DNA of 59,434 nt, filler included, from Basidiobolus ranarum (GCA_040143965.1; 3 parts of 3 records of this genome joined end to end with filler, not necessarily neighbours in it), one strand, 5' to 3'; positions 8,606 to 49,330 are shown, counted from the first letter of the whole stretch. Numbers and translations are program-made. Notes: generated by a model from the sequence alone, not told the origin.

Positions 8606-11600
8606 TTAGCTATCTTTCATTTGATGTGGTCGCTTATTTTGAAATAATAACATTTGATTAGGACGTTGAGTGATTCTTGTACCATCCAAACGAATATTTA
8701 ATTTGGTTTCTCCAACAATCCCTTTCACTAGTTCAATAATCACCTCTTCTTCAATCGAGAATTCCAATAATGCCCACGAGTAGGTGTAGTATGTAGTTTG
8801 CATAAAGCTATTTCTTGACTCGGCTGGTAGTTCTTGAAGAACAAAGTCACATAACAATTGACGTATCCCAGTAACTGAAGGGAGGTACCTAGGCATGGGT
8901 GATTTGGTGCGTAGTGCTCCAGAGACATTGTATAGATTGAGGATGAGAATGCTCACCTAAAACAACCAATATCAGTTAAGGTTCAAGAACGTAGAGATAT
9001 TTTTATCCTAAACATGAAACTTACCAACTCTCGGCGATACTCATTAATAGGCATCATGTATTTCTCGTGATATTCTTGAGGTAACTTGTTGAGTGTACTC
9101 CGGATAACCAAAGTGAGATCAAGCATATGCTTTAGTCGGATTAGAATCTCTTCGTATACTTCTCTTTGGAATGGACCTCGAAGTCTCGGTTCAGCGGCTG
9201 ATTTATCGAGAAGTGCTTGAGCTTTCACTAAACTATGGAATACCTTGGTAAAACTATATCGAAGTTCCTTTTGAATACAACGATCTTCATCTTCCGTATT
9301 GTGAAGATTGAATAGAGAGGAAAGAACATGCGTATTCAGATTAAATATATGGGAAAGCTCCAAGCGAAGCTCTACACGTGCAATGTAAGGCGAGATGAGT
9401 GAATGAACAAGGAATGTCATCAATATGCCGGTATCAACTGCTGCTATTCTCGTGAGTGCAATGATCGAGACGTTCGTTTCTGTCCTTCGATACACCCATT
9501 CATTGAATATAATCACGACATAGGCAGCTAATGACACTGATCCCACTTTGTTCAAAGGGTTATGAACAAAGAGGTACCACAGAGGGAGACTGAAGAGTGT
9601 GAAGCACACAGGAAGTGCGTACTGAATACCACGGCTTATCTCCCAAACGGCAAGTCCCCAAAAACCTCCAAGAATGGTCCCAATAAACCGCTGGACCCCA
9701 ATGGTAAGTACAGCACCGATAGCCACGTTGGACACGATGTTGGCAGTAATGAGAGACCATTGTCCATGGTTTGACGAGTACCACGACATCGAGCTGTCGA
9801 AATACGCAGGAAGTGATAAACAACCAAAAATGACAGTGAATTTGAATGCGTAAACGACGTGATTTGTCCCAGACCATCGTAAAAATTCCCATATCAAGCG
9901 CCTAAAGGTTCGTTTGTTCTCTTTTTCCTTTTGTATTTCGTACAAATATGTTCCGATGGACTGTCGGCGTACCGGGACTGATTGTATTTGAACTGATCGT
10001 GTACGATTACGCAAGCCAGACCTTTCTGATTCTAATACTGGATTCTTCTCGCAGACTACTTCAAGTCTCTGCGTACGATTTTCAACGCGATCCTCTCGGG
10101 TAGCACTTAATAACATTTCATCTTGATCGTCTTCATTCATCGTACCTTCGCTCCCATAAATATCTAATCAAAATCCATCCGTTTAGTAACAAATTAGAAA
10201 GAAGATGTCAATATTTACTCTACCTTTATGTGCACGAATTTCTTTCTCTTTTCGTGAATCGTTATGCAACCACTTGGAGAAAGAGACCTTGGGCCACCAG
10301 AGTCGCTTCCGCTTACATATATTTGGTCGAAATTCCTCTTTAGATTCCACAATCTGTTGCACCGAAACAATCACTTGTTTGAGTGAATACATATAGGCAG
10401 AAGCGATCAGAATGGAGTCGTTGGAATCATCACCATTTGCCGCTGCATGAAGTTCCTCACTAACTGTGGTATGAATGAGTTCAAATTTATTCAAGGCATC
10501 CGCTAGTAGTTGACTGGTAGTCACGCTCTCATCCACTTGTTGGGGAAGTTTTTCTTGTGGTAAAGCCATGGAAGGTTGGTGCTGATCACTCAAAAGTTCA
10601 AAAGTTACAATGAGTCTATTGATAGCTACGACGACACTAAGTATCAACTCAGGAGTATGTTTGATCAATATATCCAAGTGCAAGCGTATGAGTTTTTCAT
10701 TGTTTCTTGATACTTCCAAATCATGCATATTCACACCATATAGATCAATATTGGTACTTCTATGTATTTCACTATCGTTTCGCATCTTCTGACCATCTAG
10801 AACACTCTTCAGTAACATTCGTAAGTGATGTTGAAGCTTCACCAAAGTACCCACTGATCGAACTATTTGTCGAGGATCGATTTTGCCGTAGGTAATTTCG
10901 TATCTAGCTTGACGAAACATATCTGTCAATTTATACATAGTGGCTTGGATATTCCGGATTTTGTACTCTAACTGGTAGGATTGTACCACATCGTAGTCCG
11001 TAGTTTTTAGGGCTTCTGGGAGTTTGGAAAGAACCTCACGAGATTGTGTAAGAGCAGAGACCATAGTATTGCTATATAAAATTCACAAAGGATGAAGTTA
11101 GCCATCACTCAATCGAACGAAAAATCTCCATGAAATTCAAGCAATAATTACCAAACCAGAGCGGTAGAACTTACAGGCCAGAAGATGAAATTCACCAGGA
11201 GTGTAATTAAACAACCGATTAACTGCAAGATAATAAATTTGCATGGGAAGATAAAGCTAAAGTGGGATTCGTCTATGTGTAAGGTAAATAGATATAGTGG
11301 TGGGATGAATCCAACCGTCCAAAATACCGCTAATTTGGGGAACTTGGCTTTGCCATAACCAAATAAAAACGCTATGGTTAATATGAATACGAAGGCTATC
11401 CATCTTCCACTTGGTACACCAATAGTTCGATTAGCCGTCGTGAAACAAGCCATTCCAATGGCAGAGAACCCAAGTCCGGTAATCATTCCAAATGTCGCCA
11501 GAGCAAAACTCTCAATATGAGAGCCCAAGGGAAGGAACGGAGGAGTAAATATAGCCATCAAGATACCCAGGTATCCTAACGAGCCGAAGTAATCAGTGAC

Positions 11601-11720
11601 CGGAGTTAACATGTAAAGGTAAGAGGTAATGAGATACGAAAGCATCCCTTTGAAAATGGCATGCCATTGCCGTTTAGTGGGCCTCCAAAAAAAGACTGAC
11701 GGCAGTCTCCAATAATTCAT
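8606..11720 (-). CDS. FUSC/aromatic acid exporter (ArAE)-like multipass membrane protein, paralog 1 (4 exons)
   Basis: Two hydrophobic blocks (..LLVNFIFWPVSS; YAFKF..HGQWSLIT..QRFIGTILGG), EPRLRGPF and GALRTKSPMPRYLPS motifs. The four ORF pieces are joined by short GT-AG introns. Confidence 0.85.
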
Positions 11721-12653: not shown

Positions 12654-15600
12654 TTAAACATGCTTCATTTGATGTGGTTGCTTATCTTGAAACATGAATC
12701 TCTGGTTAGGAAGTCCAACACTTCTCGATGGATCTAGTCGGATATTCAGTTCAGTCTCTCCAACAATTCCTTTCACCAGTTCAATAATGATCTCTTCTTC
12801 TATCGAAAATTCTAGCAATGCCCACGCATACGTGTAATATGTAGTCAGCGTACAGTTGCTTCTTAATTCAACCGGTAGCTTCTGAAATGCAAATTCGCAA
12901 AGCAGTTGCCGTATTCCGGAAACTGAAGGAAGGTACCTAGGCATTGGTGATTTGGTACGTAGCGCTCCAGAGACATTGTATAGATTGAGAACTAGGATGC
13001 TCATCTGAGACAACAATTAGTAATCAAGAACGTAGAGTATTTTTATGGAGTCTAATTGTCCTAAATATGCAACTTACAAATTCTCGGCGATACTCGTTGA
13101 TAGGCATCATGTATTTCTCATAACACTCTTGAGGTAGCTGATTGAGTGTACTCCGGATAACAAGAGTGAGATCAAGCATATGCTTTAACCGAGTTAAAAT
13201 CTCTCTGTACACATCGCTTTGGAATGGGCCTCGAAGTCTCGGCTCAGTCATTGACTGAGCGAAAAGTGCTTGCGATTTCATCAAACTATTCAAGACCTTA
13301 GTAAAGTCACAACTGAGCTGCTTTTGAATACGACGGTCTTCTTCTCCGTCTTTCTCCACATTATGAATATTGAATAGAGAGGAGAAAATATTTAGATCTA
13401 GATTAAATATATGGGAAAGTTCCAAACGAAGTTCTACACGCGCAATATAAGGTGCGATGAACGAATGAACAAGAAATGTCATCAATATGCCTGCGTCAAC
13501 CGAAGCGATCCTCTCAATGGCCACAAGATAGGGCCTTTTCTCCAACTTGCGATATACCCACTCGTTAAATATAACCGCGACATAGGCAGTTAGTGACACT
13601 GATCCCACTTTGTTCAAAGGGTTATGAATAAAGAGATACCACAAAGGGAAACTGAATACCGTGAAGCATACAGGAAGTGCGTACTGATTACTACGGCTTA
13701 TCTCCCAAACGGCAAGTCCCCAAAAACCTCCAAGAATGGTCCCAATAAACCGCTGAACCCCAATGGTGAATACAGCACCGATAGCCACGTTAGACACGAT
13801 GTTGGCAGTAATGAGAGACCATTGTCCATGGTTTGAGGAGTACCATGCCATTGAGCTGTCGAAATACGCAGGAAGCGCCAAACAACCAAAAATGATAGTG
13901 AATTTGAACGCGTAAACGATGCGCTCAGACCGGCACCATCGTAAAAATTCCCATAGCAAGCGCCTAAAGGTTCGTTTGTTCTCTTTTTCCTTTTGTATTT
14001 CGTACAAATATGTTCCAATAGACTCTTTCCGTGCCGGAGCTGGTTGTGTTTGGACTAATCTTGAACGCTCTCTCAAGTCAACTTGCATTGGTTCACTTGC
14101 AGATTCTTTTTCTTCAGTCACTCCGAGTCTTCGGACACGGCTTTCAGCATGGTCCTCCTGAGCACCAGCAGAAAGTACCTCGTCGTCATCATCTTCAATA
14201 CTATCACTTTCATCTTCAGAGGTATCTAATCAAAATAAATTAAATTAATTGCGATTTAGAAGGAAGATGTTAAAGTCAATATTTACTCTACCTTTATGTG
14301 CACGAATTTCTTTTTCCTTCTGTGAATCGCTATGTAACCACTTGGAGAAAGAGACCTTGGGCCACCAGAGTCGCTTCCGCTTACATACTTTAGGCCTTAG
14401 TTCCTCTTTAGATTCCACAATCTGTTGCACCGAAACAATCACTTGTTTGATTGAATACATATACGCAGAAGCGATCAGAATAGAGTCGTTGGCGTCATCA
14501 CCATTTGACACTGCATGCAGTTCCTCACTAACTGTGGCATGGACGAGTTCAAATTTGGTCAAGGCATCCGCTAAGAGTTGTCCCGTAGTCACACTCTCGT
14601 CAACCTGATAAGGAAGCTGTTCCTGTGGCAAAGACATGATCGGTTGGCTTTGGTCGCTAATAAACTCGAAACCTTCAATGAGTCTGTTGATAGCTACGAC
14701 AACACTATATATCAACTCTGGAGTATGTTTGATCAATATATCCAAGTATAAGTGGATGAGTCTTTCGTTGTTTCTCGGTATCTCCAAATTATGCCTATTT
14801 ACTTCATAAATATCGATATTCACACTTTGATGCGATTCACTATCATTTCGCATCTTCTGACCATCTAGAACACTCTTCAGTAACATCCGCAAGTGGTGCT
14901 GAAGTTTCACCAAATTACCAACCGAGTGAACTATTTGCCGAGGATCGATTTTGCCGTAGGTAATTTCGTATCTAGCTTGACGAAACATATCTGTCAATTT
15001 GAACATAGTCATCTGGATATTTGTGGCCTTGACCTCTAGCTGGTAAGATTGTACCGCATCGTAGTCAGTGGTTTTTAGAGCTTCTGGAAGTTTGGAAAGA
15101 ATCTCTCGAGTCTGTGTAAGAGCTGAGATTATATTATTACTAGATATATTTGTCAAATCAATAGGTTAGCTATCACTCAAGCGAACGAATAGACATGGTA
15201 AAATAAAGTAAATGATTACCAAACAAGAGCCGTGGAACTGACGGGCCAGAAGACAAAGTTCACTATGAGTGTAATGAGACAACCAGCTACTTGCAAAATC
15301 AAGATTTTGCAAGGAAAGAGAAAACTAAAATGCGGATTATCAACCTCTACAGTAAATATATAGAGAGGTGGAATAAAGCCGATTATCCATAACATAGCTA
15401 GTTTCGGGTATTTTGCTTTCCCGTAACCAAACAAAAACGCAGTCGTCAATAAAAATGCGAAAGCAATCCATCTTCCACTTGGTGCACCAATATTCTTGTT
15501 GGCTGTTGTAAAACACACCATTCCAAGGGCAGAGATACCTAGTCCGATGGCAATACCGATTGTAGCAACAATAAAGCTCTCAATATGAGATCCAAGAGGA

Positions 15601-15812
15601 AGAAACGGTGGTGTGATCATGACCATAGCGATGATTAGGTACCCTAACGCTCCAAAGTACTGTGTAACTGGTGTTGCCATGAAAATACCTGAAGTAATTA
15701 GACAAGCAACCATTCCTTTGAATATGGCCTGCCATTGTCGCTTAGCTGGTCTCCAGAAGAAAACTGATGGTAATCTAAAATATTTGGTTTTACTAAAAGG
15801 ATCGGACTTCAT
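12654..15812 (-). CDS. FUSC/ArAE-like multipass membrane protein, paralog 2 (4 exons)
   Basis: Colinear with paralog 1, with the same three intron positions and long identical peptide stretches. Confidence 0.85.
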
Positions 15813-19784: not shown

Positions 19785-19884
19785 NNNNNNNNNNNNNNNN
19801 NNNNNNNNNNNNNNNNNNNNNNNNNNNNTTAATTAATTAANNNNNNNNNNNNNNNNNNNNNNNNNNNNNNNNNNNNNNNNNNNN
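19785..19884. other. Artificial contig linker
   Basis: 44 N + TTAATTAATTAA (stops in all six frames) + 44 N, exactly 100 nt. Confidence 0.98.
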
Positions 19885-37300: not shown

Positions 37301-38272
37301 TTTTGCGGCTATGGAATTCAAAGTAACTACGTGGGTATAAGTTAATTTCTGCTTGCCAAAATGGGTACATTTCGTAAGGCATATTGTTTCGCAGTATTGA
37401 TAAGCGCATAAATGAATATGGTCTGTACTGCACTAGTGCTCAATATTCGAACAAGAATCATGCCCTGGGTATACAGAGCACAGTCTAGCCTGGAAACTAG
37501 TGTTACCTAATTCACATATAACTAAAGATTTCAATCCAGGAATAATCCTACGCTCAAGTACAACACGCACAAATGTAGCATTGGTTTCTGAGCTAACATA
37601 TATTGGCTACATGGTGGCTATCACTTTTTAAATGATTGGGCTAAAATATGCATACCTTGATCTAGGATCGGAGGCGATATAGCATCGTTTTTGGTTTATC
37701 TTTTAAACTCTCGTTATAATTATACCGTCACCAATCTAACACAACATACAAGAAATGTTTTTGTTCAGCCTTGATTATTAATGGAACTGCTGTGAAGGTA
37801 GTTGTTTTAGTTATGAGACTAATCTCTAGTTAGATCATGGAGTCAATACAAGGGTGGCGTTCCTAGAATATCTAGTCCACCACATCTTAAGTAATCGTTA
37901 CGGGCTGACGGAGAGGTAGTGGAAGTGATTTCCGTTAATTTGGGAATAAATATCAGATATACTACGATGGGAGGCGAAACTAGGCTTAATTTAGCAATAA
38001 AGCATTTTGTAACTGATTGCCATCATATCCATATTTAGACTTTTTGGAACAATCCTATGTTTGATTGGATATTGACTCCGAAAACTTAGCCACTATTGAC
38101 GAATTCACAAGTGATAATCTGTATCTGTATGTTTATCTTTTTGAATTTCCAATATGGAATGCGTTACTGTTAGCAGTTAGAGAAGAATATCATACATATG
38201 TGGGTAAACACTAGGGTGCATAATCATATAAGTACTGGCTATTCATCAGTGTCAAACACAACTAACTCAACA

Positions 38273-39350
38273 ATGCGTTTAGTTTTCAATATTACTTTAG
38301 GTATTTTTGCTGTTGCAGTGATATCCGCATATCCACAGGCCCAAGATGAATTGGAGTCGTTGAGAGCCGATGAAGAACACCCATATCCTGGTGATTGGTT
38401 TTCGTCGACCACTACTGATGAGCCCCTGGAGGCTATAGATGACACTGCATCTACTTTGAACACTACGGCTTCACATATTTTGGCAAGGAGAAATAGTAAC
38501 AGTGATCCAGCAATAGCTGGAATTATAATTTACTGTAAAACCGGTACTTGGGGCTGTGATAACGAAAGTGTTCCATCAAGGTCATATTTTTGTATGATGA
38601 ATAAACCTCAGTATTCAGCTTGTACGATGGATCAAATTTGTGGAGAAAAGGCACGCGGTATATACGGTTGCATAAAAAAACCACCATGTATCGACAATTC
38701 CATGGCCTGTACTGCTCATAATGTTTCACCAGACTATACTGCCTGCGTAAACGGCCAATCTGTCAAACAAGTATGTCAAGCTGGAGTTTGTATACAAGAC
38801 GGTACCAAGATTAAATGTGAGCCAAGAAAAACCACCAAAAAGGATACGCCTACATATAGTGTCAAGACTGGTGCATTTATCACACGTTTTGGTCAACCTG
38901 TGACAAAAACACTTTCTGAGACAGTCGAGACTGTTGCAGTTGTGGAGACATATGACTATACTGCTGTTTACGAAACTGCTGTAACTTACGAAGCAATTGA
39001 GACTTGGGAAGCAATTGAAACAGAGGAATTGGTTATGACAAATGTGTATACCAATGTCGTCTTAAATACGGATATCCCAACCCCTACAGAGTCCACTGAA
39101 ACTCGCAAGTCTATTGTGACTGAGAGCTATAATGCCACACATTTACACACCGGACAGCATATTACTACAAAGCAAGAGGTGCAACTAGCGTATTTGATAC
39201 TGTTGGCACATACACAACAACTGTCAAGACCGCTAAAAAAACTACTATATACAAACCTACCGAGACTCACAAGCCTACTAACTTACATAAATACACCGAA
39301 TCTCACAAGTCGACTGATTCTCATAAGCCAACTGACACTCATAAAAACAC
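38273..39350 (+). pseudogene. Second, frameshifted and truncated paralog of the secreted Cys-module/His-repeat family
   Basis: Signal peptide MRLVFNITLGIFAVAVISAYPQ (compare MRLVTNILLDIKASALINAFPQ) and two Cys modules. After a +2 shift at about 39139 the frame reads KPTETHKPTNLHKYTESHKSTDSHKPTDTHK. Confidence 0.75.
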
Positions 39351-39640
39351 CAGAGTCAGCTATTTGCTAAGTGTCAGTGCTTTTCAAAATTTAACATGTT
39401 TAGCAATTTTTCAATCGTTAGTTTGCTGGTAAAGCATATTGATGTTTGATATTTATATGCCAAGAATTGTTAACCTTCAATATATTTCTAGAAATCTATT
39501 AGAAGTTATACTTGACAAGAATATTGCTGATCTTTTCATAGAAGAAGTCAAGGAACATCTTGAATGGGAGCTCTTTGATCATACTTTCAGACAGCATATT
39601 GCCAGCCCTCTTTTTGCGCCTTTCTCTTTGGAAAGGGAAC

Positions 39641-39740
39641 NNNNNNNNNNNNNNNNNNNNNNNNNNNNNNNNNNNNNNNNNNNNTTAATTAATTAANNNN
39701 NNNNNNNNNNNNNNNNNNNNNNNNNNNNNNNNNNNNNNNN
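39641..39740. other. Artificial contig linker
   Basis: 44 N + TTAATTAATTAA + 44 N, identical to the first linker. Confidence 0.98.
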
Positions 39741-40345
39741 AGCTCAATTGCTTAAACATGTTCCATCCACCAGATTTGCTATCCATTCTGTATGAATTCA
39801 CCATAATGACCAGGTCAGGTGCCCGATAGTCAGTTGCCTATCTTAGATCAGAGGACTGTGAACAGCTCAATCATAGTGCCATAGTCAGTTTAAGCAAGAG
39901 CCTACAGGCTTAGCGTGCCATTAACCAACCCAAGGCCCGGGGAATTTTGGGCTTCACTCTATATAGGCGCTGGCTCAAGCTGCTAATCATGCCGTGTGCC
40001 TAGTGGATTGTATACTAGTGATCTAGTAACGAATCAACCTCCGCTCCATTTGACACTCAACACATCATTCTATGGCGACATGCAACAGGCAATAAATAGG
40101 GGATATCCAATCCAAATGAATAGCATGCGAGCCAATGGCCTTGCACCATTGTGGTGAAATCAAGCGCCGTGGCTCGCAAGGTCCAAGTTTAATTCTACCA
40201 CTTTTGACTAATTCATGAATGCGATATTCTGCATGGAGCCAGCTCTTTCCAGATTGTAATTAAGGAAATCATGCTGAAACAGTAAGTGAGACCAAATGAC
40301 CTCTCAATTAGCAAAAGTTCATTGTCACTCCAGTCACCCCTTAAC

Positions 40346-40355
40346 TATATATAAA
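40346..40355 (+). promoter_or_regulatory. TATA-like element upstream of microprotein ORF 1
   Basis: TATATATAAA lies about 80 nt before the ATG at 40434. Confidence 0.4.
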
Positions 40356-40433
40356 CTACGTGGATTGTATAAAGTCGGGAGGTCCGGTTGGACTGTTAAT
40401 AGAGAACGAATCTAAATCCCAACCGCCAAAAAT

Positions 40434-40592
40434 ATGCTCAGCTGGATATCTCAAGCACTCCGCCGTACTGCAACCAACACGGCTCCCAAAAATAAAAGCG
40501 CTACCACAACCGTCCTTGCACCGAAATCAACACCCACTTTTGCCTCTGTCAGTGAAAAACAAGAGGTGGTCGATACACTCCTTATTTTGTAA
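40434..40592 (+). CDS. Putative 52-aa microprotein MLSWISQALRRTATNTAPKNKSATTTVLAPKSTPTFASVSEKQEVVDTLLIL (below the ORF-track cutoff)
   Basis: ATG in an A-rich context (AAAAATATG) with an upstream TATA. It has the same length and terminal motifs as the ORF at 41373. Confidence 0.65.
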   Translation: MLSWISQALRRTATNTAPKNKSATTTVLAPKSTPTFASVSEKQEVVDTLLIL

Positions 40593-41372
40593 TATTCCAC
40601 CTTAACCATATATTCTCAATCGTGTATTATGATCCTTGTGCACCATGGTGTTACCTTACGCTTAATCATCCCTTTGCATGCTAGTACAGATATTACTAGC
40701 AAGAATGCTGATTCAACCTCAGGCGTTTCTTGAGATACCGGTCTCCTCACTTGCCACTCTAACTCGCCTGTTCCATACGTAGACCTTAGCCCTTGCACAA
40801 ATACCAACTAGGACCAGTGTTGCTATATATATTCACAATAAATGAAAGCTAAACGTATCATCCCAAATCCAAGCCAATCGTAGGCGATTTCAAATTAACT
40901 CCACCAATACCAAGTGGTAAATGGATAAGGATTCAATTATTTATTAACAATTATTTAGTACCAACATTATGTACGTGGAGATTGGAGTAATCGATGAAAC
41001 TCTAAAAAAGGATTTAAATACAAAAAGAATTCATGGGGAATTCTTGGTTTTCTGTAGATTTCTTACCAACACACTAATAACTTGGCTACTGTATGTAATG
41101 AAGTTTAATTGCCTTAAACTGAAAACGACAGCTACTACAGCAAGTTCCATTGGCCAAGTGAATGAAGTGGGGCTAACTACATGGTCTAGCCAGAGAATCG
41201 ATAAGAACAAAGTTCTGTCTAGATTCGATGGTACATTGCTGGGTAATTACTACAAGAAGCCGTTTTGGATCGGCTAGAAGCATCTTTACACTTGACAACT
41301 AGCTTGATCTAACTCCAGTTGGTATTTAAAGAGCTTATGCGACTTGAGTCTTTCTCCAACAAACCATAAAGT

Positions 41373-41537
41373 ATGAATTCCTGGACCACAAATGTGTTTC
41401 GTCGCGTCTTTGCCTCTACCCGAGGAAGTATCTCTAACACAAAGCCAAGCCCTCCTACAACCTCCAAACCTCACACTAACGCAGTAGACTCTGAGGAGAA
41501 ACGTGAAATGGTTGTGTTGTTACTGTCCACATTTTGA
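41373..41537 (+). CDS. Putative 54-aa microprotein MNSWTTNVFRRVFASTRGSISNTKPSPPTTSKPHTNAVDSEEKREMVVLLLSTF (below the ORF-track cutoff)
   Basis: ATG with A at -3 (AAAGTATG) and TATTTAAA at 41323-41330. It shares MxSWxxxxΦRR and SE.K.E.V..LL with the ORF at 40434. Confidence 0.65.
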   Translation: MNSWTTNVFRRVFASTRGSISNTKPSPPTTSKPHTNAVDSEEKREMVVLLLSTF

Positions 41538-41780
41538 TCCCTACCATTGGGGATTCCATGAGCAGTCGACAAAGCCCTATTACCGCTTTACTGTTGTAAA
41601 AAATCAATAATTTAGATGGCATTTATGTATATTTATTCAACGAAAAGTTTATTACTTCGATTGTATTTCTCGCAATAATAAACGTAAATCAAATGGTTCG
41701 TAAATTGCTACTTCCGAGATAAATCTTAGCTATCGAAAATTTCGATTGAATAAGACTGCACTTGACTCGGTTTACTGGGT

Positions 41781-44584
41781 TCAGATACTCGCTTCTTCAT
41801 CATCATCCTCTACTTCGATATCCCAATCTGCTAACTCGCTCTCTGCGTGGAGCTGTGCAAGACCGGTGATTTCCTCAAGATACTTGGACGAATCGAAGGC
41901 CTGTTTTAAAAAATCAAATCCCTGGTCGGCATAGGCATTGAGCACCTAGATATGAAAAGGAAAAATGAGCTTATAAGCCAAGAAGAACCTTTTCATTTTA
42001 CTTACGATGTTTGAGCACGCAGTACACTTATCGTAAGCGCGCCCAACTACAAGCATATTGCTAAAATGAGACAGAAATCCTCGAATTTGGTGAGGAATGA
42101 GCCCTAGAGGGGTAGTTGTAGACTCTGATATAGATCTAGAGCTATCTGCAGGTGCTAAGGGGCTTTTTCATGATAGCAGTCAGAAAGCGTTGTGATATTG
42201 ATTAGCGATTATGGAAGTTATGTTACCCTTTTTCATGCTGAAGTACAGATACCATCAGCTCTACTGCAGTTGCGCTAGCTATAGCAGAAAGCCCAGGCCT
42301 AGTTACGGTACATTGCTGATCGAGTGTACGATTACTTAGGGACTAAAAACGAGAATGTAAATGCGAAGAATTCAAGGCATTATCCTGAAAGAAAACCACC
42401 AACATCAGTAGGCGCAACGACATCATTACAGAAATAACAACCAAGTTGTGGCTCTTTGCGTTCAGCTTCCATTTCGACGGTTTCGTCATTAACTGATACC
42501 CCATGACGCATAACTACATACGTATCAAAGCCCAGCGCGGCATTAATTACCAACTGATGAGTAAATTTCGATTTAGCCGATTGTTGATATCAATTTGATA
42601 TGATAATCTTTACTTTCTTGTAATGGGCACTTAACATAGTGGGAAGCCATCTGCTCTCTCGACTATCCATTAGAAGGAAGATCACGTCGTGTGAGTTAAT
42701 GAGATTAGCTATCTTATCGACATCGGATTTGGTTTTCTCGACGTCAATAACTGGATGGCCTGGCATAGGTATAGAGATTGTGTGTCCTTCGGATATCTTT
42801 GAGCAGCGTTAATAGGATTGTATAGGCTTGAATAGATTACGTTAACATAATACTAACAACTCCGGGGAAAACCTTTTTAAGGTTATCAGCGGCACAACTG
42901 GCCTTTTCCTTGCCTCCATCAAGACTATCCTCGAAATTGAACAAAGGCTGACGTGCCGGATTGGAGAACGAAACACGGGAATTATCTACAAATGTAATAT
43001 GTCGAACTCCCCAGCCCTATCAAGGATATGAAAGTAAATAGGTTAGACCTGATAAGTTAGCTGATCCAAGTGAATGAACGATATTACTAGAAGACTCCGA
43101 GCAACATAGCATCCTAACGTTCCAGATCCAAGTAGAAGACATTTTTGAGAGGATATTTTCTCCAGATTTAGGCTTGGAAGTAACCGCCATCGCATGAGCT
43201 TCAGATTCAAGTCTACCGCTGTGTTGGCTAGTCTTGTAATCAAAAAGTGAGTTAACGAAGTAGCGACTGGTAATAAATTATCCAACTCACTTCTGAGGAT
43301 CCATCAATGGTGCAAGATCTGCCACTCGGGGTCCTAACTTTCCGTGAGCATTACGTTCCCATCCAACAGCTTTGGGAAGACCACCCTCTACATCATCGAC
43401 ATCGAAAAGTTAGTAAAATCAACCCATGATCGTCTAATAAATCGCCGACTTCCTTACCACCAACATGAAGTTGAGCATGCATGCTTATATGAAGAACTTT
43501 GCTATGCAGAATATCTCTTTTCCCAATAATCTCACGGTAGCATACAACCTTGACTTCCTTCAACTTGAATGTATGTTGTATCAAAGCCAAGTAGTTTCTT
43601 AACGGCCATCCGGGATTCGAAGGAAGGCTACTAGGGTCAGCAAACCCAAAGAAAAGCTAATAAAATACTCTCATTAAAAATCGATGTGCTGGATAATCAA
43701 GGTTAATAAGAACGTTGAACCAACCTTGGAGGCATCGTAATTTATGGAATCTTGGAGTGTCAAAATTTTAACCTCTGCTCCTTCCTGACTGAGAGCAAAA
43801 AACCCATGTTGTTCTTGGGGATGGTTCTCTCGGTATTCCTGGTATTTACTTTGTATCTCGTGGATCTAATGATTGACGAATTAATGAAATATCGGGCTGT
43901 AAGAATCTATCCGACATTTACCATGGTTACATCAAAGACCGAGGCTATGTCTTCTATATCCTTCAACGAATATGGAGGTTCTGTAGTTAAAGCAGGAAAT
44001 CCGAACCAATAGTAGTATTTGTAACTTTTGAGATTAGCAAAAGTAAGAAGTAAAAAACGAGCTAGCAAGTGAGGAGTATTCAACGCAGCACCCGACTCAA
44101 TATCCAACCACACCTATTAGCAAGTATTACTAACTATCAAATATATCCATAAGTACCAAAATAAGAGATTTATGGTACCTGTTTACTACATTCTGTGAAT
44201 AACTGGTTTTTGTCGAGCTTTTTAAATTCCTCAATGGTATTGGTATTTTTGATAAAACCTGGTGCACGGAGGGAATAAGGCGGGAGACTATGAAGGAAAC
44301 ATGTTAAGTTTGAAGTAGATTTAGACGGGGAAAGACAGTAAAGTGTTTGACCTGCTAGATTCCTCATCATAGGAGAAACTTCCTAAACATAATCGAGAAG
44401 GGATGGCTCCTTCCTTGCCTATGGTAGATATACCACCAAGCATCAAGTAATAACCCACTATAGGCTTAATTTCGTCATCTAGCTTGAACTGTTCGATCTT
44501 GAGTTGCGTCAGTGTATGCCAAAAGGGCGCCTCGACAGCACTACAGAAAGGTTCGAATTGTAAGATTGTTTGTTTTTCGCTCAT
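41781..44584 (-). CDS. ATG7: Autophagy E1-like enzyme Atg7 (many short introns)
   Basis: [68 protein letters not shown] and the catalytic [13 protein letters not shown]. The gene ends with the acidic tail ..EDDDEEASI*. Confidence 0.95.
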
Positions 44585-48605: not shown

Positions 48606-49330
48606 ATGTTTGGTCTACGTGCAATTTCGAAACCTGTTGGAAGACTTGTTGCCTTTCGTGCTGCTCGTTTGGCTGCACCACAAGTAGCCTCCGCTGCCAA
48701 GATTCTTCGTATTCAAGCTCCAAAGGCCATTACCGCACTTACTGTAAGTGATTTTCAATGATATCGCACACTCCATTGCTGAATTAAACTTTTTGGTAAA
48801 ATTTCCAATATTAGATTCAAGAGCGTGGTTATGCTGCTCGCTTCCGCCCTGGAGACTGGAATTGCCCAAAGTGTAACACTCATAATTTTTCTTCTCGCGA
48901 CTCATGTTTCCGTTGTGGTGAAGGTGTCGGTAGTAATCGTGAGGTAAATCCTGGAGATTGGTTGTGCCCCAGTTGCTCTTTCTACAACTTTTCTTTCCGC
49001 GAGAGTTGTAACAGTTGTGGGGTATCTGCTCCTGAAGGCCACGTTGTGGTCCCATTTGAACCTAAACCTGTAGAGCCTAGACCTGGTGATTGGGAGTGTC
49101 CCAGTTGTAGTTTCCAAAACTTCGCTTCTCGTAAAACTTGTAAGAAATGTTCAGCTCCTTCCCCAATTGAACTCTTCATAGACGAAGAAAACCAATCCAA
49201 GTCTTGTGTACTTCCCGGTGACTGGATGTGCCCTTCTTGCTCCTTCCATAACTTCAAGTCAAGAACCTCTTGCTTCAAATGTGATACCCCTGCTCCAGTC
49301 AATCCTTCGGAAGATAGTGAGCACTTTTAA
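48606..49330 (+). CDS. 217-aa protein: mitochondrial presequence plus four RanBP2-type zinc fingers (intron 48744-48814)
   Basis: Exon 1 reads MFGLRAISKPVGRLVAFRAARLAAPQVASAAKILRIQAPKAITALT, followed by a GTAAGT..TTAG intron, then IQERGYAAR and four PGDWxCPxCxxxNFxxRxxCxxC units. Confidence 0.88.

Follow-up and report, generated by a model that had tools for sequence, protein, structure and literature searches.

PKI, the inhibitor of cAMP-dependent protein kinase, combines an N-terminal amphipathic helix, an R-R-x-A-hydrophobic pseudosubstrate and a later leucine-rich helix. A second group of small proteins with a basic amphipathic N-terminus is directed to mitochondria. The relevant passages of PMC7723863 describe the presequences of such proteins as 20–60 residues long, Arg-rich and acid-poor, forming a positively charged amphiphilic helix, with Arg in position −2, −3 or −10 relative to the site of cleavage. 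In primary structure, presequences differ greatly from one another (PMC12306757).

We analysed a stretch of Basidiobolus ranarum DNA (GCA_040143965.1; 59,434 nucleotides, comprising three parts joined with filler, hereafter the window) that contains two short ORFs, ORF1 (type A) and ORF2 (type B), each with one counterpart elsewhere in the genus. These counterparts, KAK9765795.1 and ORX94051.1, are direct family members of the same length class, with conserved termini and a variable linker, and both are uncharacterised. The two ORFs resemble fungal orphan small-ORF genes in encoding fewer than 60 amino acids, in being intronless and genus-restricted, and in being partly missed by annotation. 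They depart from most candidate orphan sORFs, however, in forming a tandem pair that has diverged, in having each type conserved in one further genome, and in showing clear constraint by blocks.

As in small mitochondrial presequence proteins, by the criteria of PMC7723863, the N-terminus of both peptides is acid-poor, basic and hydroxyl-rich with a predicted amphipathic helix, and type B carries Arg patterns of the kind found at cleavage sites. The peptides differ from that group in that the N-terminus is their most conserved part, type A has neither an R-3 nor an R-10 pattern, and no solved mitochondrial subunit is related, the single match of a profile search against PDB sequences having an E-value of 6.2. 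The likeness to PKI, which consists of small size, an N-terminal amphipathic helix, RRTA in type A and a later helix, is a weak lead. Type B reads RRVF(A) rather than R-R-x-A, and in type A the Ala is followed by T or N and not by a hydrophobic residue. We rejected PKI membership, given that the motif fails in both types and that no Pfam match appeared at E-values up to 1.

Architecture of the locus

Both ORFs lie on the plus strand, 939 nt apart from start to start with 780 nt in between, in agreement with a first-pass annotation that had described two same-strand ORFs of 52 and 54 amino acids about 0.9 kb apart. The features of the locus, numbered from the first base of the window, are as follows.

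40346, plus strand: TATATA, putative core promoter element of ORF1, 88 nt 5′ of the ATG (pattern scan)
40368, plus strand: TATAAA, putative core promoter element of ORF1, 66 nt 5′ of the ATG (pattern scan; the two boxes span 40346..40373)
40434..40592, plus strand: ORF1, type A, 52 aa, stop codon included (ORF listing)
40837..40842, plus strand: AATAAA, possible poly(A) signal of ORF1, 245 nt past its stop codon (pattern scan)
41323..41329, plus strand: TATTTAA, TATA-like, putative core promoter element of ORF2, 50 nt 5′ of the ATG (pattern scan)
41373..41537, plus strand: ORF2, type B, 54 aa, stop codon included (ORF listing)
41677..41682, plus strand: AATAAA, possible poly(A) signal of ORF2, 140 nt past its stop codon (pattern scan)
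about 41775-44584, minus strand: ATG7 gene split into several exons (matches to ATG7_N and ThiF), convergent with ORF2

The TATA-like boxes and the good ATG context reported at first pass are also present, the boxes lying 50–88 nt upstream and both start codons having an A at −3. The pattern scan found no ATG between the boxes of ORF1 and its start codon, and one upstream ATG, at 41337, between the box of ORF2 and its start codon. Judged from pattern and position, the boxes may serve as promoter elements of the two ORFs. The AATAAA downstream of ORF2 falls in the space that it shares with the convergent ATG7 gene; the 3′ ends of the two genes are only about 240 nt apart and their 3′ UTRs may therefore overlap.

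An Rfam scan of positions 39700-42000 returned no family covering ORF1 or ORF2. Its sole match was a sub-threshold one between the two ORFs (40989-41057, plus strand) that resembles the C/D-box snoRNA SNORD65 and is probably due to chance (19.8 bits against a gathering score of 41, E-value 0.4). Repeats in 39741-41800 are limited to trivial short matches. Four runs of exactly 44 N occur in the window as two pairs (19785-19884 and 39641-39740), with 12 bases between the members of a pair; the second of these pairs is found some 700 nt 5′ of ORF1, and the sequence there is unreadable.

The genes of the window are eukaryotic and contain introns, its GC content is about 40%, and it also carries genes for HSP70, cysteinyl-tRNA synthetase and ALAD, along with an HSF-type gene. 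On the minus strand, a block of genes is duplicated in tandem (8983-11720 and 13024-15812); FUSC_2 / ALMT / BRE4-like transporter ORFs occur in both copies, and out-of-frame sORFs within the two copies match each other at scores of 80-331. Between 28408 and 36035 on the plus strand runs a series of very large S/T-rich ORFs (797, 790, 496 and 291 aa) without a Pfam match, in a region of strong strand composition skew (GC skew down to −0.21); these look like repetitive cell-wall or adhesin-like proteins. A 390-aa ORF at 38198-39370 is T-rich and likewise has no Pfam match.

Likeness of ORF1 and ORF2 against a chance background

Alignment of the two peptides bears out the shared terminal motifs to which the first-pass annotation had drawn attention: both peptides open with M-x-[ST]-W (residues 1-4), carry RR at residues 10 and 11, and share a C-terminal motif, E-[VML]-V-x-x-L-L, with L or F as the last residue. 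Neither has an acidic residue within its first 38, as had been claimed; the first one occurs at residue 41 of ORF1 and residue 39 of ORF2. As a background we used the 133 ATG-initiated sORFs of 40-70 aa in the window, which form 8732 non-overlapping pairs. An acid-free start is frequent in this set, with the first D or E at position 39 or later in 26 of the 133.

The coding sequences are otherwise dissimilar, again as described. The best blastn match between them is 11 nt long (E-value 0.25), identity extends to 57 of 147 aligned nucleotides, and the same codon is used at 3 of the 18 residues that the peptides have in common, two of these being Met and Trp. No trace of a duplication was detected at the DNA level, either in the coding regions or in 300 nt of flanking sequence.

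At the protein level, BLASTP aligns ORF1 with ORF2 at an E-value of 2.4. Their Smith-Waterman score of 40 was reached by 21 of 2000 composition-preserving shuffles and their global alignment score by 9 of 2000. Among the background pairs, 17 of 8732 score at least 40; seven of these lie in duplicated DNA, nine are other unrelated pairs, and the remaining one is ORF1/ORF2. The pairwise similarity of the two peptides, taken alone, is not above chance. The first-pass annotation had reasoned that protein likeness combined with DNA divergence suggests selection, and it had named a pairwise score no better than that of shuffled sORFs of the same composition among the points that would count against the pair. 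The likeness indeed falls within the chance range of the window, and the argument for selection consequently has to rest on comparison with other genomes.

Counterparts in Basidiobolus

The exact ORF2 protein is present in public protein collections (P0001), where an independent annotation had already called it. The exact ORF1 sequence is absent from these collections, and ORF1 is uncalled in every public protein set. The description of the pair as hidden is thus correct for ORF1 but not for ORF2.

The type B counterpart of ORF2 is P0002 (ORX94051.1), a 57-aa protein of Basidiobolus meristosporus CBS 931.73, which matches at an E-value of 3.1e-12 over 100% of the length with 65% identity by BLASTP and 69% by MAFFT; the first 18 residues of the two are identical. 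The type A counterpart of ORF1 is P0003 (KAK9765795.1), 53 aa, from B. ranarum. Its E-value of 1.1e-7 comes from a HMMER profile built from ORF1, ORF2 and P0002, and thus with ORF1 included. ORF1 and P0003 are 65% identical by MAFFT and 57% by BLASTP, their last 11 residues are identical and their N-termini nearly so. P0003 and P0002 appear to be counterparts of the window's genes, either as orthologs or as out-paralogs.

These relatives emerged from the kind of profile search that had been proposed at first pass, which gave one counterpart per ORF. The HMMER search covered 1.84 billion representative proteins of all lengths exhaustively, and at E-values up to 0.001 it returned four proteins, P0001, P0003, P0004 and P0005. 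We rejected P0004 and P0005 as family members: each is a long tandem DNA repeat in translation, along which one short chance match is repeated, 11 times in P0004 and 8 times in P0005. Both proteins exceed 1000 aa, and with a 57-column profile the repeated matches add up to E-values of 2e-6 and 1e-5; such translations are a trap for profile searches with short peptides.

Other searches added no members. A word-indexed protein search with ORF1 alone as query yielded no candidate, and with all four members as queries against 5.8 billion proteins only P0001-P0003 were accepted among 30 candidates. A scan of metagenome contigs with the family alignment gave three pattern matches, none of which was confirmed by tblastn. 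No Pfam family matches ORF1, ORF2 or P0002; a DUF6798 hit to ORF1 was discarded at 13.1 bits against a cut-off of 26.9 (E-value 0.08), and ORF2 and P0002 did not match that family. A search of the ESM Atlas gave no usable look-alike. Within the window there is no third copy, the best of 2428 other six-frame segments having an E-value of 1.2. Judged by called proteins, the family appears to be restricted to Basidiobolus.

All of the database relatives bear only the name 'hypothetical protein'. In the main texts searched, we found no paper that mentions the accession or locus tag of ORX94051.1 or KAK9765795.1, and none that combines 'Basidiobolus' with 'microprotein'. The gene models of CBS 931.73 are JGI annotations, and RNA-seq exists for this strain, according to the relevant passages of a Basidiobolus genome paper (PMC7466969), which are silent on the ORX94051.1 gene.

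Evidence that the ORFs are coding

Within each pair of counterparts, conservation is concentrated at the two ends of the peptide. The numbers of identical over aligned residues are as follows.

Type A (ORF1 vs P0003): N-terminus 14/18; linker 8/22; C-terminus 11/14; Fisher p 0.0024
Type B (ORF2 vs P0002): N-terminus 18/18; linker 9/24; C-terminus 10/15; Fisher p 0.00028

In both pairs it is the linker that has diverged and the termini that are conserved, and the conserved blocks coincide with the start and the end of the ORF. The members are 52 and 53 aa long in type A and 54 and 57 aa in type B. Each pair retains its start, stop and frame through two indels and about 31-35% residue change, in a comparison whose counterparts, being drawn from protein databases, comprise intact called ORFs only. 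When we simulated neutral evolution at matched divergence, with substitutions and no indels, the ATG, an open frame and the same stop were kept in 0.19 and 0.18 of copies for the two ORFs. Evidence for selection on ORF1 and ORF2 seems to come from this comparison with other genomes.

Codon usage points in the same direction. The in-frame codon score is well above that of the other five frames for both ORFs, which rank 3 and 4 of the 133 sORFs. With Pfam-confirmed genes alone as the codon training set, the two ORFs drop to ranks 11 and 14, and by synonymous choice alone the ranks are 28 for ORF1 and 13 for ORF2. We regard this evidence as supportive but modest. The highest codon-usage score of the 133 (0.417 with the strict training set), and the highest synonymous score too, belongs to an sORF at 48606-48761 on the plus strand, which may be an exon of an uncalled gene.

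These observations bear on a different explanation of the locus, namely that the ORFs are untranslated, that the conserved blocks are DNA or RNA elements (promoter, UTR or lncRNA) and that the database 'proteins' are artefacts of gene calling. The unremarkable synonymous codon usage of ORF1, the uninformative name of all database relatives and the failure of every annotation to call ORF1 are points in its favour. However, the conserved blocks match ORF start and ORF end exactly in both pairs, and frame, ATG and stop persist through the observed residue change and two indels per pair; neutral copies keep an intact ORF in only about 19% of cases even with indels left aside. The in-frame codon score and the lack of any Rfam family over either ORF also speak against it, and we consider this explanation very improbable. 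A longer spliced gene was set aside as well: the counterparts share the start and the stop, and no longer relatives appeared in the HMMER search. On the comparative evidence, ORF1 and ORF2 are very probably real small-protein genes, and both would be translated.

Relationship between type A and type B

We also compared the two types as profiles. Using hhalign, type A and type B align end to end over 51 collinear columns with a P value of 0.001 and a probability of 21%. The score was reached by 2 of 400 global column shuffles and by 8 of 400 shuffles kept within the N-terminal, linker and C-terminal regions, which indicates that part of the A/B signal is shared regional composition. A profile of ORF2 and P0002 alone placed ORF1 first, though weakly, of 408 other ATG-ORFs in the window (7.2 bits, E-value 0.18). 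Identities between the types fall preferentially in columns conserved within both (9 of 22, against 4 of 29 elsewhere; p 0.03), whereas conservation compared column by column is uncorrelated between type A and type B (p 0.48). Once the counterparts are added, the A/B signal is stronger from profile to profile than from sequence to sequence. The two types also have the same architecture, the same layout of conservation and the same length class (52-57 aa).

It is conceivable that ORF1 and ORF2 are both real conserved microprotein genes and nonetheless not homologous, their likeness having arisen by convergence or chance and their adjacency being coincidental. The nine unrelated pairs in the window that score at least 40, the BLASTP E-value of 2.4, the absence of DNA similarity in coding regions and flanks, the hhalign probability of 21% and the 8 of 400 layout-keeping shuffles that equal the profile-profile score can all be read in this way. 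Homology, on the other hand, predicts that a profile-profile signal should exceed that of single sequences, as it does here, and the alignment is collinear from Met1 through the C-terminus, with cross-type identities concentrated in the doubly conserved columns. It would also be an odd coincidence for two peptides of the same rare size and layout to lie 780 nt apart on one strand of a window that has no third look-alike. We therefore think independent origins improbable.

The link between type A and type B is, in our estimation, a moderate one. The best reading of the pair is that ORF1 and ORF2 descend from an old tandem duplication, which we consider likely because the profile signal is accompanied by the same size and architecture and by tandem placement on the same strand. 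The first-pass proposal of a small peptide family without known relatives stands to the extent that one family is probable, no Pfam family matches and each ORF has a counterpart of the same length class.

Predicted structure and possible targeting

AlphaFold2 models were built on the four-sequence alignment and are of low confidence because only four sequences exist, with a mean pLDDT of 60 for ORF1 and 65 for ORF2. The model of ORF1 has a helix at residues 2-16, a disordered stretch and a second helix at 37-51; that of ORF2 has helices at 3-17 and 37-53 separated by a disordered stretch, and its C-terminal helix reaches a pLDDT of 78-85. The predicted N-terminal helix (about residues 2-17) is basic, amphipathic and conserved. 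Its hydrophobic moment over residues 2-12 is 0.56-0.65, compared with 0.30 +/- 0.15 in the background, where 13 of 133 sORFs reach 0.5. The amphipathic N-terminal helix suggested at first pass is thus supported by both the prediction and the moment. The linker, rich in S, T, P, K and A and free of acidic residues, is fast-evolving and predicted to be disordered. The C-terminal helix is conserved, has an acidic start and displays a hydrophobic stripe, E-[VML]-V-x-x-L-L-x-[LF]; it might, as proposed at first pass, act as a short interaction helix or a degron. A signal peptide or pheromone precursor was set aside: the peptides lack a hydrophobic core at the N-terminus as well as a CaaX end, and a dibasic site is found in type B only.

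An acid-free, basic N-terminus of 38-41 residues with a predicted helix could act as a cleavable matrix-targeting presequence, in which case the C-terminal helix would work inside mitochondria, for example on a respiratory or import complex. All four members lack D or E before position 39-42 and carry 4-6 K+R (2-3 R and 2-3 K) in the acid-free stretch, and the predicted amphipathic helix agrees with the presequence properties listed in the passages of PMC7723863 cited above. Type B, moreover, fits both the R-3 pattern (R-x-[FYL]-[AS]) and the R-10 pattern (R-x-[FLI]-x-x-[TSG]) at R11; in the background, either pattern is found in no more than 4 of 133 sORFs. Composition of this sort is nevertheless unspecific in the window, where 19 of 133 background sORFs are just as basic and free of acidic residues and 85 of 133 contain a TOM20-like pattern, and type A has neither Arg pattern. 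The cleavage implied by the patterns of type B would fall at residues 12-21, short for a presequence; cleavage directed by R11 would leave one of 12-13 residues, below the 20-60 given in the same passages of PMC7723863. The N-terminal 18 residues are also the best-conserved part of the peptides (18/18 and 14/18), an uncommon trait in a sequence that is nothing but an address tag. The mitochondrial assignment made at first pass is consequently compatible with composition and helix but unspecific, and its Arg patterns are confined to type B; we consider a presequence possible but rather unlikely.

Discussion

We favour, with moderate confidence, an interpretation in which ORF1 and ORF2 are two real intronless microprotein genes of a family encountered to date in Basidiobolus alone, old tandem duplicates now saturated at the DNA level, whose products would be helix-linker-helix adaptors or regulators. 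The two conserved helices would be the working parts of each peptide; we take them as working surfaces because they are the parts under constraint. The basic amphipathic N-terminal helix might attach to a membrane, to the surface of an organelle or to an acidic partner, and the C-terminal helix might bind a partner protein, with the flexible linker allowing one small peptide to bridge or clamp two sites. Such a peptide would act as a small bivalent adaptor or regulator and not as an enzyme, and the two paralogs could carry different specificities. The binding roles, the paralogy and every function suggested here for the two peptides are offered as proposals.

A more ambitious version can be envisaged for a Basidiobolus-specific bipartite family, in which the strictly conserved N-terminal helix would be a mitochondrial address and a binding element at once, the acidic-hydrophobic C-terminal helix would engage a second partner, and the anciently duplicated paralogs would regulate a conserved machine as a pair, by forming a heterodimer or by dividing specificities between them. 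We attach little expectation to this version. If it were true, the locus would represent a lineage-born regulatory module half missed by current annotation.

Returning to the interpretation that we favour, the two ORFs would belong to a new, small and apparently lineage-restricted microprotein family with one unannotated member and two relatives that sit in databases without description. The locus illustrates that a weak likeness between paralogs, even one without significance by itself, may lead to real genes when counterparts from another genome are added. Its present practical value lies in better annotation and in a candidate for study. Basidiobolus is an early-diverging fungal genus that inhabits animal guts and occasionally infects people; if the two genes are real, it has a small family without described relatives, one of whose two genes in the window was missed by annotation. 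Two short helices and a linker would then offer a compact system for examining how microproteins arise, duplicate and gain function.
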